Source: a virus
Taxonomy: Duplodnaviria > Caudoviricetes
Strand: one strand, 5' to 3'
Length of the DNA stretch: 52,086 bases
Virus record (IMG/VR): IMGVR_UViG_3300027362_000002
Location: 1 to 52,086 of that record
Position numbers and translations under genes: made by a program. This document shows positions 4,456 to 43,555 of the stretch, one piece after another (the first letter of the stretch is position 1; every line of letters begins with the position of its first letter). The notes under the pieces were generated by a model. The model saw only the letters and a program-made list of their open reading frames with translations. It was not told the DNA's origin and did not search any database.

Positions 4456-4647
4456 TAGGAATCTTCGCGGACGGCAGTATCAAGGGCGTAGCTATAGGAG
4501 TGATTCCTGACGAAACAGAGAGAGTGCATCAGGATGGCCGCCGAAGTCAACGACAAGCCTAACACGTACCCGCTGAAGTGGAGCAGAGCTTCATGCTTGC
4601 TGATCCCGAATCCGAAAGAAGTAATCGAGCGCAAGGAGTCGTTATGA
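4434..4647 (+). pseudogene. Small exported-type protein apparently frameshifted at an (AG)4 run
   Basis: MWSLLFIVGIFADGSIKGVAIGVIPDETE continues in another frame as ECIRMAAEVND...SCLLIPNPKEVIERKESL, whose stop overlaps the endolysin ATG (ATGA). Confidence 0.5.
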
Positions 4648-5105
4648 TCGATGAAAAGGTTACGCCGTCGTTTTGGTTGTCAGAGTTCTTGTTGTCCGAT
4701 ACGGCCGTCCGAAAGGGGCTCGATAACATGCCGCACGCGATCCAATTGGCGAACCTGAAGAACATCCTTATGCCAAACATGCAGGCGGTCAGGGACTCCC
4801 TAGGTTGCCCGGTGTTCGTCACCAGCGGCTACCGATCCCCAGAAGTCAATCGGGCTGTAGGCGGGGCACCAACGAGCGATCATGTCCAGGGGCTGGCGGC
4901 AGACTTCAAGGCACCAGAGTTCGGTCCACCGATCAAGGTCGCCCACTACATCCTCGAACACATGGATCTGAAGTTCAAGCAACTCATAGCAGAGGGCCAG
5001 TGGGTTCATATATCATTCCCGGCTATGGGTGAAATGGCGAAGCGAGAAGTTCTAACCGCTCACTTCGGAGACGGGCCAGTGAGCTATACCCAAGGGCTTG
5101 CATGA
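4644..5105 (+). CDS. Endolysin, peptidase M15A family
   Basis: SGYRSPEVNRAVGG..SDHVQGLAAD and WVHIS zinc motifs; AAGGAG RBS before ATG 4644. Confidence 0.92.
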   Translation: MIDEKVTPSFWLSEFLLSDTAVRKGLDNMPHAIQLANLKNILMPNMQAVRDSLGCPVFVTSGYRSPEVNRAVGGAPTSDHVQGLAADFKAPEFGPPIKVAHYILEHMDLKFKQLIAEGQWVHISFPAMGEMAKREVLTAHFGDGPVSYTQGLA

Positions 5106-6671: not shown

Positions 6672-6954
6672 AACCTCTGCATTCGTACTTTCCGCTCGCT
6701 TCGTATTCCTGTCTGGCGCGCTCGCTCTCAGCCGCCAGAGTCTCCAGGATGTACTCTGCTGTACGGTCTAGCCAATCGAATGAGAACTCGGCAGGATCGA
6801 CTCTGAGACCGTCTACCCTGACTGTGGTTATCTCGACCGCCTTCGGGACATCCTCAGTGCTCCAGCGTCCTTCCGTATACATATGACACTCATACTCAAC
6901 GAGTACCTCGGCGTCACTGAGAGGGCAGAGCTTGGTGTTCATACGTTTCTCCAT
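6655..6954 (-). CDS. Hypothetical acidic protein
   Basis: Tiles the operon; GGAG RBS before ATG 6942. Confidence 0.6.
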   Translation of the reverse strand: MEKRMNTKLCPLSDAEVLVEYECHMYTEGRWSTEDVPKAVEITTVRVDGLRVDPAEFSFDWLDRTAEYILETLAAESERARQEYEASGKYECRGYDEDI

Positions 6955-7595
6955 AGTTCACACGGTCCGCCGTGTTTGCTTTTGTATGAGCATCGTTTAC
7001 ATGATTGCTCACTAGGTGTTGGCGTATAGGTTTCGTCAGCCAGCATTGCCTCTGCTTCTGAGTGCCATCTATCACGATGCGCTTCAAGCTCTTCAAGCCC
7101 ATAGTCACGCTCATGCAGCGTCGTTCCGTGGTCTATGTAAACCGCCTTGATTTTGACAGATGATACCTGCTCTGCGCGCGCGCCAATGATGGCGTAAAGC
7201 TGCAATTGATCAGCGTGATAATCCTTAATCTTCCCACTTTTGAAGTCCGTAATGTGAAGCGTGTCATCATCGACGTATGAGGCATCAAGGAAGCCTTTGA
7301 CCCACTGCGAGCTTTTCTCGCAGACGTTCCAGTTCTTGTCTAGTCTGAAATAGCGCTCACATGCCGCACCTTTCTCACGCAACTCGATCAGGGTTTGCTG
7401 GATCCGCAGCAACGGTGGGATGATGTGGTCTATTTGGCGAGATATATAGCGCTCACAATGTAAGTGCAGATTACTGCCTCTACGCATCCAAAACGTAGCC
7501 TTTGTAGGCAGCCTATCGACGTGGTTATGTTTCCACATGCGCGGGCATTTTCTGTACTCCGCAAGGCTTGAATATGACCACTGGCCTGACTTCAC
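6939..7595 (-). CDS. PD-(D/E)XK exonuclease, RecB/Cas4-like
   Basis: WSYSSL..Y..CP, G..LH, LDA...DFKSGK, QLQLYA and C-terminal CxxC...C; GTG start overlaps the upstream TGA. Confidence 0.88.
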   Translation of the reverse strand: MKSGQWSYSSLAEYRKCPRMWKHNHVDRLPTKATFWMRRGSNLHLHCERYISRQIDHIIPPLLRIQQTLIELREKGAACERYFRLDKNWNVCEKSSQWVKGFLDASYVDDDTLHITDFKSGKIKDYHADQLQLYAIIGARAEQVSSVKIKAVYIDHGTTLHERDYGLEELEAHRDRWHSEAEAMLADETYTPTPSEQSCKRCSYKSKHGGPCELWRNV

Positions 7596-8119
7596 GCCGC
7601 TTCCATCGCTTCTTCGTCGTTGACCCAAGCATCCGAGAACTCTCGATCCTCGAACAGCGCCGCGAGCCCGGTGATTTGCTTGAGACGCAGCAGTTCGTCT
7701 TTGTCCATGCCGATGTGGCGCAGAATCCACGCGTCAGACATGCCGGCCGTAGTCAACTCAGCGACGATGCTGGACATGAGTTCGATGCTGTGCGAGCCGC
7801 GAGCACGGTTGTGACGGATCGTTGACGCCATCCGGTTCGAGATATCTTTCTCGATCACGACGACAGGCATCAGACCCTTCTCACGCTCCATGATGCGGTC
7901 GCTGCGAAGCATCGTTGTGTAGCGGTGATAGCCGTCAACAATCTCGTACACGTCATCCTCCGCCACGTAGTAGCAGACGATCGGCATGGTGTAGCCGTCC
8001 TCCCAAATCGAAAGTTCTAGAAGCTTCATCTCTGGAGGAGCTACGGCGTTGGGGTTATAAGCATTAGCGCGAATCTTTTCCAGCGGGATCGCGCGCACGT
8101 TGTAGACTGGGCTATTCAT
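7592..8119 (-). CDS. ibrB: IbrB/YbdM-like ParB/Srx N-terminal domain protein
   Basis: NAYNPNAVAPPEMKLLELSIWEDGYTMPIV, IVDGYHR and RMASTIRHNRARG motifs. Confidence 0.88.
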   Translation of the reverse strand: MNSPVYNVRAIPLEKIRANAYNPNAVAPPEMKLLELSIWEDGYTMPIVCYYVAEDDVYEIVDGYHRYTTMLRSDRIMEREKGLMPVVVIEKDISNRMASTIRHNRARGSHSIELMSSIVAELTTAGMSDAWILRHIGMDKDELLRLKQITGLAALFEDREFSDAWVNDEEAMEAA

Positions 8120-9534
8120 ATCTCAGATTCCTCGATTGCCGCCGCCATCTTCGCTTTGCGGGCCGTGTACTTGTCCAACGCCTTCTGTCGGCTGATGTTC
8201 TGATCCCGCGTGCGGGTCAGGCCCATGTAGGTCATCGCCACATCGTTCTTCATGATGGTGATGCATATAGCTTTCCAGCTGGGGCAATGCCGGAATGGGG
8301 TCGAGTAGTTGCTACTTAGTTCATCTGCGAAGTCAGACTTGATGCGCACCACTTCGTAGAGCCTCGGCTTCGTGCAGCGCTTGCTGACTACGTTTGTGTT
8401 TTCAATCTCTAGACCCTCTTCCTTCATGGCCTGGATCACTTCTGGATTGCGACCCCGGCCTTTCTCTGCCCACTCTTTGCGGAAGCGCGCTATCTGATGC
8501 TCGAACTTTTTTTTCGTTCCACCAGGCAGCGTAGATAGCAGGAATTCTGCATACTGCTTCCATGTGAAATGATCCGGCTTCGTGATCGTGCGCCAGCCCA
8601 TAGCTGTTGTACCGCCATAGATGCCGCCGAAGTTGCAGCCGTTGACGCGGCCGACCATGCGTCCCCAGTTGTTAGGGTCGATCACACGGTACAGTTTCAA
8701 GTCGTTCTGTCCGCTCTGATGGAAAGGGCTTGCTACGCGCATCTGGTCGATCGTCAGACCGGCTTGGTAGTACAGGTCATATATCTTGTTGTAGTCAAAC
8801 CCAAACTTCGCGTTGCACGTCCAAATGTCTTCTGTAATCCAGTCATACAGCGGGTAGAAGTTCATCGTGCGCGGATCGACGCGCTTCGTGTACTTCAGAC
8901 CCTTGTGCATCTCCGTGCGCTTGTCGCTGGTGAATATGATTCGCCGTGTCAGTGATTCCTGGGCGCGCAGGCCGATCATTACAGCGGTCGGTCCGTAGGT
9001 GGTTGCGTACCACTCCGCTAACTGTATGCGAGCATCAAAGCCCTTCGTGCCTTTCACGAACGGATATGGGCAGTTGTCCTCGTTGATGACATATGGCTCA
9101 TCTGGCATCGGACGGACCCAAATGTCTTTCTTGTCGCGGTCCCAAGGAATCCAGCGCGGCTCATACATGCTGACAGCGCAGGCCGCAGAGATTGGAAGAC
9201 ACAGCCAATACCGATGCTTCACGTCATGCAGCGTCCCGAACGCTCGCGCCGCGTACTCGTCGGTGAAGCGATAGCCCGCTTCGTAGTCCTCGTAATAGAA
9301 CCCGAGTTTGTGCAGCAGACCGTTCTTCTTCGCGTACTTGTACGTGAGATTGAGCAGCACGCCAGAGTCTTTGCCGCAGGAGAACGCCACTAGCACGTTA
9401 TCGAAGTCGCGGAAGGCGATCGCGATTCGACGCAGCGCCGCCTCTAGAACATTCGTTCTTGTTCTGGTTGACGAGCGCTGATCTTGCCCTTGGCGATCAA
9501 CTCCGCCCGCTTGATGGTCATATAGATTCGACAT
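8116..9534 (-). CDS. ibrA: IbrA/YbdN-like PAPS-reductase (PP-loop) protein with DUF3440-type C-terminus
   Basis: VAFSCGKDSG PP-loop, GLRAQESLTR, YPLYDW...DIW, QMRVASPF, PSWKAICITIMKND. Start uncertain (ATG 9534; ORF open from 9594). Confidence 0.88.
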   Translation of the reverse strand: MSNLYDHQAGGVDRQGQDQRSSTRTRTNVLEAALRRIAIAFRDFDNVLVAFSCGKDSGVLLNLTYKYAKKNGLLHKLGFYYEDYEAGYRFTDEYAARAFGTLHDVKHRYWLCLPISAACAVSMYEPRWIPWDRDKKDIWVRPMPDEPYVINEDNCPYPFVKGTKGFDARIQLAEWYATTYGPTAVMIGLRAQESLTRRIIFTSDKRTEMHKGLKYTKRVDPRTMNFYPLYDWITEDIWTCNAKFGFDYNKIYDLYYQAGLTIDQMRVASPFHQSGQNDLKLYRVIDPNNWGRMVGRVNGCNFGGIYGGTTAMGWRTITKPDHFTWKQYAEFLLSTLPGGTKKKFEHQIARFRKEWAEKGRGRNPEVIQAMKEEGLEIENTNVVSKRCTKPRLYEVVRIKSDFADELSSNYSTPFRHCPSWKAICITIMKNDVAMTYMGLTRTRDQNISRQKALDKYTARKAKMAAAIEESEI

Positions 9535-9716
9535 GGCGGTCGGCTCTGTCCAAGCGTCAACAGGTTCGAATCGTTCTTCATCAAAGCTATGCATATCAGT
9601 CGGTAACTTCCTACCTTGTTTGCATCTTCTAGGCGACTCGGCGCCTCATCCGGCAAGCCATCCGGATATCCCTTCAAAGTCCAGTTGCGGATGTACTTTT
9701 CTAGCTTCTTTCGCAT
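9444..9716 (-). CDS. Small protein resembling the C-terminal DUF3440 segment of IbrA
   Basis: YI..W..KGYPDGLPDEAP..LE...KVGSYRLICIALMKND parallels SWKAICITIMKND in the neighbouring gene. Confidence 0.7.
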   Translation of the reverse strand: MRKKLEKYIRNWTLKGYPDGLPDEAPSRLEDANKVGSYRLICIALMKNDSNLLTLGQSRPPCRIYMTIKRAELIAKGKISARQPEQERMF

Positions 9717-17293: not shown

Positions 17294-17503
17294 TCACGCA
17301 ACCCGCCACACTCGACGGCCGTTGCTCGTAGATACGCAGCGTATCCGTATTTTCGCCGCCGATGCCTGTACCCGGACCGTATTTACTGCTGAGGTAGTGA
17401 AAAATGAGTCGCCAACTTTCATCTCAGCCATTTGTTCAGGAATAGATGGTCCCCGCTTTTCCTTCGCAGGAATCGGAATATCACTTACGATCTTCAGTTT
17501 CAT
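17294..17503 (-). CDS. Small basic phage protein
   Basis: IPIP...M.VGDSF...G.RVWR motif; GGAG RBS. Confidence 0.65.
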   Translation of the reverse strand: MKLKIVSDIPIPAKEKRGPSIPEQMAEMKVGDSFFTTSAVNTVRVQASAAKIRIRCVSTSNGRRVWRVA

Positions 17504-17540
17504 ACGTTCTCCACTCAAGTTAAATGTAGGTCGAGCGATT

Positions 17541-17735
17541 TCACGGTGACAGCACACGATCTATCGCGCGCCTCAAGTCAAGTTCCTCAGTGTCGAACCA
17601 CGTCGTGCGCCTATCTCTTAGGTCGTTCAGGATGTCTCGCCAACTGGCGGTGCCTGTCATCACATAATTCGAGTACGCTTGGCGTAGCTCATCGTTTGAT
17701 GGCTGTTCAGTCCTCATGCCGTAATCGTAGTGCAT
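17541..17735 (-). CDS. Hypothetical protein, first gene of the leftward block
   Basis: ORF adjacent to the divergent control region; start uncertain. Confidence 0.45.
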   Translation of the reverse strand: MHYDYGMRTEQPSNDELRQAYSNYVMTGTASWRDILNDLRDRRTTWFDTEELDLRRAIDRVLSP

Positions 17736-17777
17736 AAAAAACACTTCGTCATTCGGGTAAACCCTAACAAAAACCCC

Positions 17778-17806
17778 TTGCGCTATGCTTTTTCTTGGAG
17801 TAGAGT
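17778..17806 (+). promoter_or_regulatory. Sigma70-like promoter
   Basis: TTGCGC-N17-TAGAGT, 11 bp downstream of a GGGTAAACCCTA motif. Confidence 0.55.
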
Positions 17807-17812
17807 CTCTCT

Positions 17813-18240
17813 TGTCAGATCGGCAGTCTGATGTATGCATTGCTAAGCTCGATATGTTTAGATCGGGCATGTTTGGAAGGACGTGTACTAGCAATGCGCA
17901 CGCCCGACTGCCCATGCCAGGGACTTGCCCGATCTAAGCGGTCGAGCTTTTCTTTTTGGTGCTGACTGGATGCAGGTAGACCGCTCGCAAGGCCGCCGTA
18001 ACTGCATCGAGGGACAACGGGGGAACCTTCCCAAGTCAAACCGAGATGAGTGACCCGCGAGGGTCTCAAGGGATCGGTAGAAGGGTCGTCGCAATGACGA
18101 ATAACCCTTGAGTCGAGCACGCATTGCGTGATGCTCGGGCCATTGACGTACCGTGGGCTGGCTCCGTTACTGATAGGCACTCACTTAACCGTGTCACGCG
18201 GTTAGGTGAGTATTTGCCAAAAACCCCCGGAACTCCACCA
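17813..18240 (+). ncRNA. Candidate structured leader / ncRNA
   Basis: Long stem 17845-17869 with 17926-17949 followed by a U tract; several hairpins with GCAA/GCGA tetraloops; no convincing ORF. Confidence 0.55.
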
Positions 18241-18284
18241 CCCTGATAGCCACTGAACCAGTAACTCTTCCAGAGCTTAGGCAA

Positions 18285-18479
18285 GTGTACCAAGTACAGA
18301 TCGATCTATGGTTACAGCCATTGTTCGTTCCTCCGAGAAGGCCGAAACCAGAGCACACTACTCAATGCAAAGACTTCTCATTACCGTGCTGCGACTGCCA
18401 AACTCCACCGTGGGAAGAGTGCGAGCACACGATAGGTGTAAACCCTACTTCACATGCTCTTGATGAGCGAGTACAGTGA
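18285..18479 (+). CDS. Possible small Cys-rich protein
   Basis: CCDC...CEH pattern; GTG start with a weak RBS. Confidence 0.35.
   Translation: MYQVQIDLWLQPLFVPPRRPKPEHTTQCKDFSLPCCDCQTPPWEECEHTIGVNPTSHALDERVQ
18449..18477 (+). promoter_or_regulatory. Sigma70-like promoter for the ncRNA array
   Basis: TTCACA-N17-TACAGT next to TAGGTGTAAACCCTA; the predicted start coincides with the first stem. Confidence 0.55.
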
Positions 18480-18480
18480 C

Positions 18481-18933
18481 TGACGAGTGCTTTGATGGTG
18501 GCGAATTGCACAAGCTGGGTGCCTCTATGCAAGGCGAGGCAGGTAGGATTGCGGGGAGGATTGAGGGGTGCGTGGGAAACTGCCGACACGTTTCAATCGC
18601 CCGAAGAGCCTGCTCCTGGGATCAGCTCCAGGACGCCACCTTCAAAGCATTTCACGAGAGTAAAGTGAGCTGACGAGTGTTTTGTGGTGTTGTCCTCGTT
18701 CAAGACCTTAGCGGGTCTGAACATTGTCCTAGTAAAGCTCTGGTTGATCGCGGAGTCGAACGGGTAGCAAAGACAGCACCACAAAGTATTGCTCGAGTTG
18801 ACGAGTGTTTTGATGGTAGGCCGAGAGTCAGCTTAACCCTTGGCGCGGCATGGCGCTGTGGCTGAAGAGTGGGGCAGAATCATGTCGGTTGCCTCTCAGA
18901 TAGGCGCAAGGAACGGCCTACCTTCAAAGCACT
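18481..18933 (+). ncRNA. Array of three stem-closed RNA cassettes
   Basis: TGACGAGTGYTTTG(A)TGGT at 18481, 18671 and 18799; each 5' arm pairs over about 19-20 bp with its own 3' arm (18634-18652, 18772-18790, 18914-18933). Confidence 0.7.
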
Positions 18934-19131
18934 ACACGTTGATCGCCGAAGAGGCAGGGCCGCTCGGAATTGGTGTGTGCTTAGGTGCCATTAACGCGCC
19001 AGACATCTGTGAACATATCCTCTTGTCTGGAAAAGGGACGCGGCCCTAGGCAACCGAAACACCAGCAACGGTGCCGCGCTGATGACATGCGCGCCGGATT
19101 AGGTAACCGGCACCAACAATAGAGGTGGCGT

Positions 19132-19332
19132 ATGAAATCGAAAGTCACGCAATCATCAGAATCAGAATCGACGATGGGTCGGTGGAACATGAAAAACAAG
19201 AAACAGCCAGACGGGCATCGTAAGGCCCCGGCTAACGGCAGGGCTAAAGTCTATGTTGCAATCCCACCTCCTACGGGATGGCCTGGAGGCTCGCCTGAAG
19301 ATAATGGTTGGAAAGGCACATTCACCAAGTAG
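19132..19332 (+). CDS. Hypothetical protein
   Basis: GAGG RBS before ATG 19132. Confidence 0.4.
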   Translation: MKSKVTQSSESESTMGRWNMKNKKQPDGHRKAPANGRAKVYVAIPPPTGWPGGSPEDNGWKGTFTK

Positions 19333-19355
19333 GATCGCATTTCGAGGACTGTCGC

Positions 19356-19709
19356 ATGACACCATCTTGGCTTGACTCCGACGCATGGGACGCATTCGTC
19401 GAGGTCAGACGCAAGAAAGGACATCACGCACCACTAACCGACACCGCAAAGAAGCGAATACTGATCAAACTCGCAAGGGCGCACGCCGATGGGTATGATG
19501 CCACTGAAATACTGTGGCAGACCGTCGAAGCCGGCTGGTCATCGGTCTACGTCAACGAGCGCTCCCCGAGGCGCCAGGAACGTCAAGAATCCACGAACGA
19601 ATACCTGCAAAGGGTAGCTGACCAAGTGGCCCAGGAAAGGGCGCTACGGGCGCCTATTCCTGATGCGGTGCGTGCTCAGTTGCAGAGCTTGAGGGTTATT
19701 GGGAAGTAG
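19356..19709 (+). CDS. Short protein resembling the C-terminal domain of phage replication initiators
   Basis: W.AF.E.R.K...PLT..A...L..L....G.D..E.....V..GW..VY; GAGGA RBS. Confidence 0.6.
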   Translation: MTPSWLDSDAWDAFVEVRRKKGHHAPLTDTAKKRILIKLARAHADGYDATEILWQTVEAGWSSVYVNERSPRRQERQESTNEYLQRVADQVAQERALRAPIPDAVRAQLQSLRVIGK

Positions 19710-39616: not shown

Positions 39617-40361
39617 CGGTCTAGGCGACGCGATCTATGTGCAGGCCATCGCTCGCCATCTGGTACGAAAAGGCGAACGGCTGCAAGTCTGCTCGGCGTG
39701 GCCTGACGTGTTCCGGCCTTTGGGCGACAGCGTGGAGGTGGTGCCGTTCAGGCGCGGTGGCGTCGATATCTTGGCTCACTACTCGCTGCGCAAACCGATT
39801 GATGGGACGACGCAGTTTCAGGACTGCTGCATTCAGGCAGGGATCACAGAGCCGGTGGAGTTGCGACTCGACTGGCAACCGTCGAGCGTGCCGATCATGC
39901 GTAATGGATTGCCGGTGGTCTGCGTGCAGTTGCCGCGGGCGCCGATGAATCGGAGAGATGGATTCGGCTCTGAGCTGCTCCCTGACTGCCGGGTGATCCA
40001 AACGCTGATCGACGAACTTTCAGGCCGCGCTCTTATTGTGCTGATCGGGTCAGGAAAACCGCTGTTCAAGTTCACCGGTATCGATGTCGATCTGTCGAAT
40101 TCAACGACAGTGCCCGAGTTGTTCGACATGGCTCATATGGCCGACGCATTCATAGGCTACCCATCGTTCATCATTCCGTTGGCTGAAGCTCTAGACAAAC
40201 CATCGCTGCTAGTCTGGTCGAGTCGCGGTCTGCGGGCGCCGCAAAAGTACGTCAGGCAGATCACGCCGCGCAAGGTGCTGCATAAACCATCATCGCACCA
40301 TGTTGTCGACGACTGGCCGCGTGAAAGGATTCTCGGGGCGCTTGGTGGCTTACTTCTGTGA
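39594..40361 (+). CDS. GT9 (ADP-heptose transferase)-like glycosyltransferase
   Basis: N-terminal GLGDA; DLSN.TTV.EL..M...ADAFIG.PS...LAEAL.KP, the GT9 C-terminal signature pattern. Confidence 0.7.
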   Translation: MRSIRGGSGLGDAIYVQAIARHLVRKGERLQVCSAWPDVFRPLGDSVEVVPFRRGGVDILAHYSLRKPIDGTTQFQDCCIQAGITEPVELRLDWQPSSVPIMRNGLPVVCVQLPRAPMNRRDGFGSELLPDCRVIQTLIDELSGRALIVLIGSGKPLFKFTGIDVDLSNSTTVPELFDMAHMADAFIGYPSFIIPLAEALDKPSLLVWSSRGLRAPQKYVRQITPRKVLHKPSSHHVVDDWPRERILGALGGLLL

Positions 40362-41016
40362 TCGGTCAGTGGTGCGAGGGGTGATCGGCGGCAAACGTGT
40401 AGCAATCGTCGGCAGCGGTCCGGGGTGTCTAGATAACGAGCCGGGGTTCATCGACTCGCACGAGGTCGTGGTTAGGATCAACAACTACAAGCTATTCTCG
40501 CAGACCGGGCGCCGGGTCGATGTCTACTACTCATATTTCGGTGGGGCGATCAAGAAAACTCGCTATCAACTACTCGACGATGGCGTGAAACTGTGCGTCG
40601 CGAAGTGCCCTAACGCGCAGTTCATGCAGTCTGCATGGCACCGGAAGAACCGTAAATTGAACGGTATAGATTTCAGGATGATCTACGAGCGGCGCAAAGG
40701 ATTCTGGTTTTGCCCGACCTACGTTCCCACGGTCGAGGAGTTCATGAGCTACTTCACGCTGCTCGGCGATCATGTGCCGACGACTGGGTTTTCTGCACTG
40801 CTAGATGTGCTGTCGTGTGAGCCGGCCGAAGTTTTTATGACTGGGTTCGATTTTTTTGACTCGGGGATTCACAACGTGACAGAGCGCTGGCGTCTGCAAA
40901 ATGTCGATGATCCGATCGGGCACGTACCGGAGACGGAACGGCAGTGGCTGGCAGCGCACCTATCGCGCTATCCGATCACGACGGACAAGAGACTGACCGA
41001 GGCGCTGTTGAGATGA
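40345..41016 (+). CDS. GT29 (sialyltransferase/Kdo-transferase)-like glycosyltransferase
   Basis: Sialylmotif L-like KRVAIVGSGP...IDSHEVVVRIN, S-like PTTG..AL...GFDFF, VS-like H....E. Confidence 0.78.
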   Translation: MAYFCDRSVVRGVIGGKRVAIVGSGPGCLDNEPGFIDSHEVVVRINNYKLFSQTGRRVDVYYSYFGGAIKKTRYQLLDDGVKLCVAKCPNAQFMQSAWHRKNRKLNGIDFRMIYERRKGFWFCPTYVPTVEEFMSYFTLLGDHVPTTGFSALLDVLSCEPAEVFMTGFDFFDSGIHNVTERWRLQNVDDPIGHVPETERQWLAAHLSRYPITTDKRLTEALLR

Positions 41017-41071
41017 CAACTAGGGTTAACCCTTAAAAACAATAGAGTCGTCTGATGCTAAAACATCAGAC

Positions 41072-41908
41072 ATGACAAAGACATCAGACTCTGGCGCTTC
41101 GATGAATTACGATTCTGGCCCTAAGCGTCATTGGAGACGTTGGGTATGGAACAGAATAACAGAACGTGTTGTATCACCTCGTGATGCTTTAGTGCTCTAT
41201 CTTGCTGGTCTTCATGACTTCGATAGAGCTATCGCAAAAACTCGCGGCTTTCATGACAACAACCTGATTGCCATAGAACGCGACAAGAGTACACGTGAAC
41301 ATTTGCGACAAAATGGCGTCCTCACGATAGATGCGAACTTGTTCGATGCAGTGCTACCAGCGGCGACCAATCGGCATATAGACGTTGTATTTGCTGATTT
41401 GTGCAGCGGACTTACTGCGCATGTGGTAAGAAGTTTAGTGCTGTGGATGTTCGTACCAACGATGTTTGATTGCGTGTTTGTTTTCAATATGCTTCGTGGA
41501 AGGGATGCAGAATCTAATCGATTGCGTTCCTATATGAAAGATGGCGCAACTCATGAAGAACACTACAAACATAGAGGATGGGTGTTATTCAACATAATGG
41601 TGGGGCGCGCTATCAAATGCACTGAGACAATAGAACTTACAGATCAACTATATGAGAGTGCGTCTATGCGCGTATGGGATCTGTCAAACCCGGCGTTTCA
41701 TTCGTACAGGAGTACATCTAACCAAACGTTTGACACTTTGGTTTTTAGAAACCCTATAGGTGGTTGTGTTGTTAGCGATGAAAATAGGAATCGCGCTTGG
41801 AATGAAATGAAGAAAAGTGTGGCGCGCAATGGATTGAATAAAACTCCAACGTATAGAGCAACGGCAGCGATCATGGCGCATCGCACAATGAGAAATAATG
41901 GCAAATGA
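41072..41908 (+). CDS. Divergent SAM-methyltransferase-fold protein (AT-richer insert)
   Basis: VLYLAG, LIAIERD, IDVVFADLCSG. Confidence 0.5.
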   Translation: MTKTSDSGASMNYDSGPKRHWRRWVWNRITERVVSPRDALVLYLAGLHDFDRAIAKTRGFHDNNLIAIERDKSTREHLRQNGVLTIDANLFDAVLPAATNRHIDVVFADLCSGLTAHVVRSLVLWMFVPTMFDCVFVFNMLRGRDAESNRLRSYMKDGATHEEHYKHRGWVLFNIMVGRAIKCTETIELTDQLYESASMRVWDLSNPAFHSYRSTSNQTFDTLVFRNPIGGCVVSDENRNRAWNEMKKSVARNGLNKTPTYRATAAIMAHRTMRNNGK

Positions 41909-42381
41909 TCTACGAATACAACGGATCGCTGTACCCGGACTACCTAAAGGGCGGGAATGCGATGCAGTTCATTGCGCCGGCTGCGCTGCATTTTTGCAAA
42001 GGGTACGGGTTGGATATCGGCGCTAGTAAGTGGCCGCTACCTGGCGCTGTGCCGATTGACTGGCAGAATGGAGGCGATGCACTTGATCTGCCGCGTGATC
42101 CGTGCGACTACATCTTTTCGAGCCATTGTCTCGAACATCTGGTGAACCCGATCGCGGCGCTAGAGCATTGGAAAGATATCCTTCGGCCAGGCGGCGTGCT
42201 GTTTCTCTACCTCCCGCATCCAGACATGGAATACTGGCTACCCCAGAATTGCCGCAAGCATCTACACTCGTGGCGTCCGGCTGACATGGCTAAGATCGTC
42301 TCTGATCTTGGGTTCTTCAACGTGATTCATTCCGAACGTGATCTGGCGTGGTCATTCGCTGTCGTGGGGTTCAAGGCATGA
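41905..42381 (+). CDS. Class I SAM-dependent methyltransferase
   Basis: GLDIGA, DYIFSSHCLEHL, W..ILRPGG.LFLYLP. Confidence 0.88.
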   Translation: MIYEYNGSLYPDYLKGGNAMQFIAPAALHFCKGYGLDIGASKWPLPGAVPIDWQNGGDALDLPRDPCDYIFSSHCLEHLVNPIAALEHWKDILRPGGVLFLYLPHPDMEYWLPQNCRKHLHSWRPADMAKIVSDLGFFNVIHSERDLAWSFAVVGFKA

Positions 42382-42926
42382 CACTCGCCGCCAAGATCGT
42401 CTCGCACTACGGACCGGCCGCGCTCAACAAGTCCGTGCTCAGCATCCGCGATGGTGGCGGCGTATTCGAGCGAGTGCTCGGCGGAAGACAATACAAACGA
42501 GTGCTCGAAATCGGCACCTATCGTGGGGTGTCTGCGGCCGAGATGTCGCAATACTGTGATCGTGTCACCACGATCGATCTGGTACACGGCAAACTTGAAC
42601 GTATGGGTGAGACGTGGGACCGGCATGCATTCTGGTCTACGCTCGGACGCGAGAACATCGATCTGATCCTCGTTGAGAACGACAGGCAGAAGGCTCGCGC
42701 TATCAACAGCCTACAGTTCGACTTCGCGTTCATCGACGGGGCGCACGATGACCCGGACGTGATCCGCAGCGACTTTGAACTTGTGCGTCGCTGTGGGGCG
42801 GTATTGTTCCATGATGTCGACCGACGTGGCAAGCGCGAGCAGGACTACGTGATCGATTTCGTCGAGAGTCTGCCGGCGCATCAGGTGCAGAAACTGGATA
42901 TCTTTGCCATATGGACAGATTCATAG
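42378..42926 (+). CDS. Class I SAM-dependent methyltransferase (Methyltransf_24-like)
   Basis: VLEIGTYRGVS, FDFAFIDGAH, VLFHD. Confidence 0.88.
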   Translation: MTLAAKIVSHYGPAALNKSVLSIRDGGGVFERVLGGRQYKRVLEIGTYRGVSAAEMSQYCDRVTTIDLVHGKLERMGETWDRHAFWSTLGRENIDLILVENDRQKARAINSLQFDFAFIDGAHDDPDVIRSDFELVRRCGAVLFHDVDRRGKREQDYVIDFVESLPAHQVQKLDIFAIWTDS

Positions 42927-43555
42927 CCGCATTGCCGGCCGAGGCCGATGGTGACTTGATGCTGTGCAGGCAGCACGGCATAGCGTACCAGCGCGACCGC
43001 TCGCACATCGTGGCCTACGATGAGGACTATTACAATAAGTGCCTGAGTTACGAAGATCAGGAGATCGCGCGCAAGATCAATACTGGGAGAATCAATCTTG
43101 TCGCCGATTGGTTCGGTACCGGTAAGGTGGTCGACATTGGCATAGGCTCAGGCGAGTTCATGAAGCTCCGGCCGAATACCTACGGTTACGATATCAACCC
43201 GGTCGCGATCGAATGGCTGAAGCGCAATGATCTGTGGGCGCAACGACTCAATGAGTTCGGGGCGCACACGTATTGGGACGTGATCGAACACCTGTCTGAT
43301 CCAGAGCGATACTTGCAGCACGTTCCGCTACACGGGTTCGTGTTTGCCAGCATGCCGCTGTTCCAGGATTTGGATTCAATCCGCAAGTCAAAGCACTATC
43401 GGCCCGGCGAGCACTTGTATTATTGGACGGTCGATGGATTCGCTGACTGGATGACGCTGCACGGGTTTATGATGCTCGATCGTCAGACGTTCGAGATAGT
43501 CGCTGGCCGCGACTCGATCTACAGTTTTGCGTTCAAGCGCTACGGGTGGACATGA
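42911..43555 (+). CDS. Class I SAM-dependent methyltransferase
   Basis: VVDIGIGSG, YGYDINP, WDVIEHL.DP, EHLYYW. Confidence 0.85.
   Translation: MDRFIAALPAEADGDLMLCRQHGIAYQRDRSHIVAYDEDYYNKCLSYEDQEIARKINTGRINLVADWFGTGKVVDIGIGSGEFMKLRPNTYGYDINPVAIEWLKRNDLWAQRLNEFGAHTYWDVIEHLSDPERYLQHVPLHGFVFASMPLFQDLDSIRKSKHYRPGEHLYYWTVDGFADWMTLHGFMMLDRQTFEIVAGRDSIYSFAFKRYGWT

Follow-up and report, generated by a model that had tools for sequence, protein, structure and literature searches.

RNase III stems flank the 16S and 23S rRNAs, and RNase III sites are present in the T7 early mRNA. A helix of 19–21 bp makes about two turns, which is the size that RNase III needs, and the enzyme itself requires little sequence specificity. 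Correia elements are dispersed bacterial MITEs with homologous interiors, and they form RNase III-sensitive hairpins when transcribed. Integron attC sites, which measure 57–141 nt, form strand-specific hairpins in arrays and combine a conserved base with a variable centre. In phages, the TIGR arrays described in the sections of Faure et al. 2025 (PMC12045711) drawn on here consist of tandem units with a palindromic closing stem, and they are transcribed and cut into single units. According to the same sections, each TIGR unit contains two 8–12-nt spacers flanked by box C/D motifs, the stems are variable, and the array adjoins a gene for the Nop-domain protein Tas (PMC12045711).

The window analysed here is the whole stretch of DNA of 52,086 nucleotides, and the record is a complete 52,086-bp phage genome with direct terminal repeats. 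A preliminary description of this DNA had proposed a promoter-led array of three non-coding RNA cassettes, each closed by a conserved stem. The three units consist of the following elements.

18481–18503, plus strand: unit 1, conserved unpaired TGAC followed by the 5' arm (18485–18503)
18504–18633, plus strand: unit 1, interior of 130 nt
18634–18652, plus strand: unit 1, 3' arm, 18 of 19 positions paired (2 G·U, 1 U·U)
18671–18694, plus strand: unit 2, TGACG followed by the 5' arm (18676–18694)
18695–18771, plus strand: unit 2, interior of 77 nt
18772–18790, plus strand: unit 2, 3' arm, 19 of 19 positions paired (4 G·U)
18799–18823, plus strand: unit 3, TGACG followed by the 5' arm (18804–18823)
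18824–18913, plus strand: unit 3, interior of 90 nt
18914–18933, plus strand: unit 3, 3' arm, 19 of 20 positions paired (1 G·U, 1 U·U)

Comparison with known systems

The array resembles the RNase III stems of the rRNA precursor and of T7 in having two-turn, long-range helices that flank a cargo and would be repeated along one transcript. The internal helix mismatch and the setting of a putative RNA from a phage early region are further points of likeness. In contrast to those stems, each unit encloses a unique cargo of 77–130 nt, the units lie 8–18 nt apart, and conservation is strict in the sequence of the outer stem as well as in the 5' tail.

The stem-closed, non-CRISPR repeat-and-cargo layout in a phage is shared with TIGR-Tas as presented in the sections of Faure et al. 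2025 used here (PMC12045711), but the stems of the present array are conserved in sequence, and its 77–130-nt interiors carry no repeated motifs. As far as those sections define the system, TIGR-Tas was ruled out because the interiors share no motif and a Nop domain is lacking; a search of the complete genome with PF01798 gave no matches at E ≤ 0.1, and the control matched in four archaea. The layout is not that of CRISPR either, as the preliminary description had maintained: an inverted pair surrounds each interior, the interiors measure 130, 77 and 90 nt, and no CRISPR-DR family reached its gathering score.

Correia-type elements are similar in their unit size of ~100–170 bp, their terminal inverted repeats of ~20 bp, their conserved outer ends and the RNA hairpins that they form if transcribed. 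The array differs from them in consisting of three adjacent copies with unrelated interiors and no further copy, and the adjacency of all three copies together with the unrelated interiors does not fit a MITE-like element. The likeness to integron attC sites lies in the strand-specific hairpins with a conserved base. However, there is no RYYYAAC / GTTRRRY core, no integrase and no cassette ORF, and the spacing is 8–18 nt. An integron attC or cassette array was ruled out because the arms lack the core and Phage_integrase (PF00589, tyrosine recombinase) gave no matches in the complete genome. A retron msr-msd was likewise ruled out, since the reverse transcriptase domain PF00078 has no match in the complete genome.

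Structure of the array

The three motif copies (TGACGAGTGYTTTG…) reported at 18481, 18671 and 18799 were located exactly there, all on the plus strand. When the 19-nt motif was used as an IUPAC pattern with at most one mismatch, the whole 52,086-bp genome gave three forward matches and no reverse match, and the reversed control gave none in either direction. Each motif copy was said to pair with its own downstream arm, and this is the case for 56 of the 58 stem positions. A script that counted pairs position by position over the three units gave 49 Watson-Crick pairs, 7 G·U and 2 U·U, but no A·C. In a MAFFT alignment of the whole units, the arms were misaligned. The U·U common to units 1 and 3 occupies the same stem position in both, and at this position the 5' arm of unit 2 is one base shorter than those of units 1 and 3. 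The differences between units had been described as compensatory or G-U, in accordance with the seven G·U and absent A·C pairs and with the distal pairs, which are fully compensated.

The helix is 19–21 bp long in each unit, and neighbouring units are separated by 8–18 nt. The outer ~15 bp are alike in all units, save for exchanges between G-C and G·U and the loss of one pair in unit 2. An unpaired 5' (C/U)UGACG is also common to all units. The inner 4–6 bp, on the other hand, are specific to each unit and fully complementary, namely GGCG/CGCC in unit 1, GTTGTC/GACAGC in unit 2 and AGGCCG/CGGCCT in unit 3. In units 1 and 2, ACGAG or CGAG follows the 3' arm at a distance of 4–5 nt, and it is seen again just inside the 5' motif.

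Folding of positions 18470–18960 as RNA gives the three closed modules that had been predicted, with a z score of -4.45, and none of 100 shuffles folds as well. To place these stems among the others of the window, long-range stems with at least 17 pairs, at most one mismatch and an interior of 40–260 nt were counted, which yields 10 on the plus strand and 6 on the minus strand. Only four of them have at least 18 pairs and at most four G·U, and these are the three units and a hairpin at 17855–17940. Comparison DNA from other phages and bacteria comprises 4,696,700 bases with both strands counted; it has 336 long-range stems (at least 16 pairs) and a single two-unit tandem, but not one array of three units. 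Based on the fold z score, the census of stems in the window and the lack of a three-unit array in these 4.70 Mb, the three-unit layout is real and rare.

The sole other tandem pair of stems in the 4.7 Mb is situated on the minus strand of locus L039 (oriented 4464–4934). Its stems have 17 and 16 pairs around interiors of 213 and 189 nt, and it may be a coding repeat. After unit 3 of the array there is a weaker, fourth long-range stem at 18955–19046 (plus strand), where ~8–10 GC-rich pairs (AGGGCCGC/GCGGCCCT) enclose ~75 nt. This stem carries no conserved motif, and the fold of its region (z -0.91) is no better than that of shuffles.

Interiors, promoter and coding capacity

The interiors of 130, 77 and 90 nt are mutually unrelated, as originally stated, with local alignment z scores of -1.31, 0.04 and -0.64 (300 shuffles each). 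The further claim that each interior folds into hairpins did not hold. The fold z scores of -0.79, -1.67 and +0.92 for units 1, 2 and 3 are at chance level, and 36, 12 and 165 of 200 shuffles, respectively, fold as well. The search for antisense targets of the array within the phage gave 13 nt as the longest complementarity, and ARAGORN identified no tRNA or tmRNA gene in the window. There is no support for the interiors as functional cargo from a fold signal, similarity or long complementarity.

A promoter had been placed directly before the first stem, at the following site.

18449–18477, plus strand: sigma-70-like match TTCACA-N17-TACAGT, 9 of 12 matches to the consensus

The sequence is present as described, but its status as a promoter was not borne out, since the match is at chance level: one sigma-70-like match is observed in 17500–19500, compared with 1.2 ± 1.1 in shuffles. 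A start from this site would fall at ~18483–18486, at the base of stem 1, and a start at ~18484 would leave the conserved CTGAC of unit 1 outside the RNA. No promoter-like sites are present inside any interior, and no terminator-like sites were found on the plus strand in 18222–18480 or 18934–19131.

The preliminary description had named a reading frame conserved in homologues as evidence against its proposal; among the three units, no reading frame is kept. The motif reads DECFDG in units 1 and 3 and lies in another absolute frame in unit 2, stops occur between the units, and the frames of 62–69 codons that overlap the units stop at the unit borders. A coding repeat was rejected because the motif frame differs between units, and the array is non-coding. 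A separate GTG frame of 31 codons is present at 18568–18663 (plus strand) in unit 1, with GGGGAGGA 7 nt before its start. It crosses the 3' arm of unit 1 and ends in the spacer, and it may represent a small basic peptide or chance.

Strand and kind of molecule

On the plus strand, each of the seven non-Watson-Crick pairs of the transition type is a G·U; on the minus strand, where only unit 2 passes the stem filter, they would be A·C. The ratio of 7 G·U to 0 A·C corresponds to a one-sided binomial probability of 0.008 if the pairs are assumed to be independent, an optimistic figure because the G·U pairs are partly common between units and possibly go back to one event. The covariation of the array is that of three paralogous copies within one genome. 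The G·U bias points to a single-stranded molecule of the plus strand. As G·T pairs are tolerated in single-stranded DNA too, the strand bias cannot separate RNA from plus-strand ssDNA. The proposed selection on plus-strand RNA is supported as far as single-stranded plus-strand structure is concerned; RNA is the simplest reading of this structure. A strand-specific single-strand structure is supported for the array, as opposed to a coding repeat or protein-binding sites.

Known RNA motifs that resemble parts of the units were compared with them. A hammerhead, to which CUGACGA could belong, was rejected: the helix is not followed by GAAA, and Rfam gave no ribozyme match here. Box C/D motifs (CUGA, UGAUGG) were rejected because these bases lie in the regular helix and are missing from unit 2. 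On reading the sequence, a K-turn did not fit.

The strand bias also bears on a reading in which the units are invertons, that is, three invertible segments whose inverted repeats are read by a site-specific recombinase. Inverted repeats of 19–21 bp around 77–130 bp do resemble small invertible switches, and the two arms of a unit would stay alike through exchange inside the repeats. However, every difference between arms is of the G·U type on one strand, the interiors are free of promoter-like sites, and neither the Resolvase domain (PF00239, serine recombinase; no matches in the complete genome) nor Phage_integrase is encoded. The last two findings do not agree with an invertible switch. With no recombinase in the phage, inversion would depend on a host-encoded enzyme, and we regard it as extremely improbable.

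Distribution of the array

The preliminary description had allowed that Rfam might already cover the element. This is not so for Rfam 15, which gives no match in the window at or above the gathering threshold, and only two irrelevant matches in 18000–19400 at E ≤ 10. Searches with blastn gave no match for 17900–19400 and 17930–18230 against phages, nor for 18223–19131 against E. coli genomes. The sole match of 17800–19131 to plasmids is 37 nt long (E 0.03) and lies outside the array. A scan of IMG/VR with the 5' motif produced 62 single matches, taken to be due to chance, none of which has a closing stem; the best downstream complement among them is 16/18, compared with 17–18 in the window. 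The junction pattern CAAAGYA-N5-35-TGACGAGTGYTTTG occurs in 28 GTDB genome contigs and 35 JGI metagenome contigs, about the number expected by chance according to our own, uncomputed estimate, and in none of these is there a closing stem.

The array is present in none of 80 loci around related terminases, where two borderline 16/18 matches have three motif mismatches and were judged to be due to chance. Contigs from four distant freshwater runs do not cover it, and the neighbour proteins of the array have no kin in IMG/VR. It is also absent from the corresponding position in all 26 relatives that carry the upstream RNA module described below (0/26), and in none of these 26 are two adjacent long stems found downstream of that module. 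Full-text literature searches brought up no description of such an array. In the part of PMC10690425 drawn on here, 10,006 candidate viral structured RNAs are catalogued and listed in supplements, and these may include the array or the module. Among the collections searched, the array is an orphan confined to one genome.

An orphan array, absent from 26 of 26 related loci and from every collection searched, would fit selfish or neutral DNA, in which tandem MITE-like inverted-repeat copies or the local duplication of a palindrome, inserted where non-coding DNA tolerates it, give rise to incidental hairpins. The conserved outer ends and variable inner parts are like those of terminal inverted repeats, and the recurring ACGAG/CGAG beyond the 3' arms of units 1 and 2 and inside the 5' motif is in keeping with such an origin. 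Yet there are only three copies, adjacent to each other on one strand with none elsewhere in the genome, and the genome has no transposase, integrase or resolvase. Simple duplication should leave interiors that are alike, whereas those of the array are unrelated, and a 7:0 ratio of G·U over A·C is unexpected for a purely double-stranded element. We therefore consider selfish or neutral DNA an unlikely explanation.

A conserved structured RNA upstream of the array

Two features precede the array on the same strand.

17855–17958, plus strand: long hairpin (17855–17874 with 17921–17940), terminator-like hairpin (17930–17944) and T-rich tract, just before the module
17962–18222, plus strand: structured RNA module of ~255 nt with covariation, 260 nt upstream of the array; the locus type is defined by this module

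The contigs from the freshwater runs matched the window at 17964–18064 only and diverged on both sides. Relatives of the module were retrieved from IMG/VR by a motif from the contig overhangs and by two further patterns. This resulted in 46 IMG/VR loci with 32 distinct sequences (loci L210–L254, for example L211:4076–4328 on the plus strand and L223:9055–9310 on the minus strand), and 26 relatives are usable for context.

Of the 38 pairs in the RNAalifold consensus of 17 members, 18 show compensatory double changes, and the covariation is above all 500 shuffles and all slid controls. In the module 96.6% of cells are paired, compared with 35–41% when the partners are slid, and the covarying pairs include conserved G·U pairs. 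The module is characterized by several GNRA-type hairpin loops, a long-range closing pair of 3 bp and an invariant 3' UAGGUGAGU. No Rfam match to it was detected in the window or in L211, and none at gathering score in nine loci. A search of 401 genomes of one bacterial order gave one uninformative 35-nt match (E 2e-4). The module is a structured RNA family outside Rfam 15. It has stronger support than the array and constitutes a separate lead.

The module is usually situated 30–110 nt upstream of an early gene; 21 of the 26 relatives have an ORF (at least 60 aa) whose start is no more than 110 nt from the 3' hairpin of the module. In the window, the first plausible gene (19132) follows the module at a distance of 913 nt, and the array occupies the middle of this stretch. 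Because the array is absent in 26 of 26 relatives, where 21 of 26 have an ORF close behind the module, it gives the impression of an accessory element by which the leader of this phage was interrupted or expanded. It need not be an independent, promoter-led unit.

In many relatives, a perfect TTGACA-N17-TATAAT promoter lies upstream of the module, followed by a hairpin RNA of ~165 nt. This arrangement is found at L211:3812–4005 (plus strand) and at the same position in L217, L230, L245, L216, L232 and others. The ~165-nt hairpin has a conserved stem base (GAGTGGCATCAG.../...TGCTGTTGCTC) and compensated distal pairs. A second long-range stem overlaps it and ends in a T-run, and it seems that either stem would preclude the other. 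At that position (17855–17958), the long hairpin and T-run of the window are different ones. Between the module and the array of the window, AACTCCACC occurs twice, at 18231–18239 and 18401–18409 (plus strand). In locus L243, the Proteo-phage-1 RNA (RF03044, 69 bits) is present at 6680–6761 (plus strand), ~1 kb from the module and on the opposite strand. Its presence near the module suggests that phages of this group have proteobacterial hosts.

Genome setting and downstream genes

The phage DNA is present in groundwater and freshwater-sediment metagenomes (23 sequencing runs), and there are no RNA runs among these 23. At least 14 metagenome runs contain about half or more of the sampled words (a fraction of ≥ 0.5 in 11 runs and of 0.44–0.48 in three). 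The early genes form a leftward block from ~6.2 to 17.9 kb that encodes an ERF-type annealing protein, NinB and a PD-(D/E)XK nuclease. Packaging and tail genes run rightward from ~21 kb and include HNH, both terminase subunits (small and large) and a tail tube protein. The large terminase shares 71% identity with its counterpart in Pseudomonas phage PAJU2. The array sits in a gap of ~1.2–1.4 kb (17.9 to 19.13 kb) in which there is no credible gene. As the genome has direct terminal repeats and lacks an integrase, a resolvase and a reverse transcriptase, the phage is probably virulent or non-integrating.

Two frames follow the array.

19132–19332, plus strand: 66-codon ATG frame behind GAGGTGG, the first plausible gene after the array
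19308–19709, plus strand: ORF133, a 133-aa protein whose likeness to phage replication initiators (O-like or primosomal) is confined to their C-terminal part

The frame at 19132–19332 has no family match. ORF133 matches phrog_678 with an E value of 1e-12 at profile positions 220–304 of 346, and only one homologue was found among 5.8 billion proteins. It is the only replication-type gene found in the window; among the 58 window ORFs scanned there is no primase or helicase. In several relatives, the ORF after the module encodes a protein of 118–123 aa that likewise corresponds to the C-terminal part of initiator or primosomal proteins only. The protein at L211:4425–4790 (plus strand, 121 aa) and ORF133 cover only the C-terminal third of the initiator families (phrog_678, phrog_9474), and no N-terminal origin-binding part was found near either of them.

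The position of the array directly upstream of this gene would be compatible with hairpins of plus-strand ssDNA that act in replication, either as signals for single-strand initiation or primosome assembly, or within the displaced strand of an R-loop at an origin beside this gene. An initiator-like protein that keeps the C-terminal part only leaves origin recognition unexplained, and a conserved stem base with a single-stranded 5' tail resembles the ssi sites of plasmids that are read by primase. The cumulative GC skew has its minimum at ~17–18 kb, which is also compatible with an origin-proximal signal, but the minimum is not independent evidence because it coincides with the switch in gene direction. 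Several observations disagree with such a signal: the array is missing in related phages with the same gene type, its three units are all on one strand, the scanned ORFs include no primase or helicase, and interiors of 77–130 nt are far larger than those of known ssi hairpins. A role as ssDNA in replication appears quite improbable.

The same location could alternatively mean that the stems act only in cis, as RNase III or stability elements of a leader that tune the mRNA of the downstream replication genes, with the interiors as filler. The lambda N leader and the T7 R sites are parallels for such a function. In agreement with this, the frame at 19132, which has a good Shine-Dalgarno sequence, begins 200 nt after the array, no terminator is situated between them, and the interiors have neither a fold signal nor relatives. 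However, a single stem would suffice for this purpose, three preserved unit-specific helices around 77–130 nt would be hard to keep if the interiors were irrelevant, and related phages have the same gene type without such a leader. A function in cis alone is conceivable but, in our judgement, rather unlikely.

Proposed processing of the array

The explanation that we prefer, to which we assign a probability of roughly 35%, is that the array belongs to a leader or precursor RNA of the plus strand and that a dsRNA nuclease cuts the stems. The three units would be carried on one plus-strand transcript, a long non-coding leader or precursor that spans between the 255-nt RNA (17962–18222) and the replication-type genes at 19132 and 19308; the array is co-oriented with the upstream module and with the downstream genes. 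Each unit would fold into a helix of 19–21 bp around its unrelated interior of 77–130 nt. One common factor probably reads the shared outer stem and the 5' tail, because the outer ~15 bp, the U·U and the unpaired (C/U)UGACG are alike across the units.

The likeliest factor would be RNase III, the double-strand-specific host endonuclease. The nearly uninterrupted helix of ~20 bp that marks an RNase III substrate is found in all three units, in which 18/19, 19/19 and 19/20 positions are paired. Given its low sequence specificity, RNase III alone does not account for how strictly the outer stem and the 5' tail are conserved, and the conserved outer stem together with (C/U)UGACG hints at a more specific reader. 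Cleavage would yield three discrete RNAs, freed from the downstream mRNA. As related phages do without the array, it may be an accessory insert in the manner of a non-coding 'moron', with a cargo that could work in trans, for example as antisense, decoy or sponge RNA. Transcription, cleavage and any action of the released pieces are inferred.

A more specific version of the processed leader would make the array a new kind of 'stem-and-cargo' array. It would then be a polycistronic non-coding precursor and an accessory module inserted after the conserved early structured RNA, with the stem base and 5' tail as the processing signal and with the interiors released as trans-acting RNAs; we hold this version to be doubtful. 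If it is true, the exchangeable interiors of 77–130 nt could serve as antisense, decoy or anti-defence RNAs, and the array would represent a third viral repeat-and-cargo RNA architecture beside CRISPR and TIGR arrays, one that needs no dedicated phage protein. Should the units be processed, several unrelated small RNAs would be obtained from one transcript via host dsRNA processing, and non-coding accessory cargo would be present in the phage early region, where anti-defence functions tend to sit. The 255-nt RNA of these freshwater phages of proteobacterial type offers a testable handle on the control of early genes or replication.

Other features of the genome

The early region also contains a pair of genes for a PAPS-reductase/DUF3440 protein and a ParB_N protein at 7592–9594. 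In the late region, two methyltransferase-domain proteins and a weak sialyltransferase-like match are found at 40300–43555.
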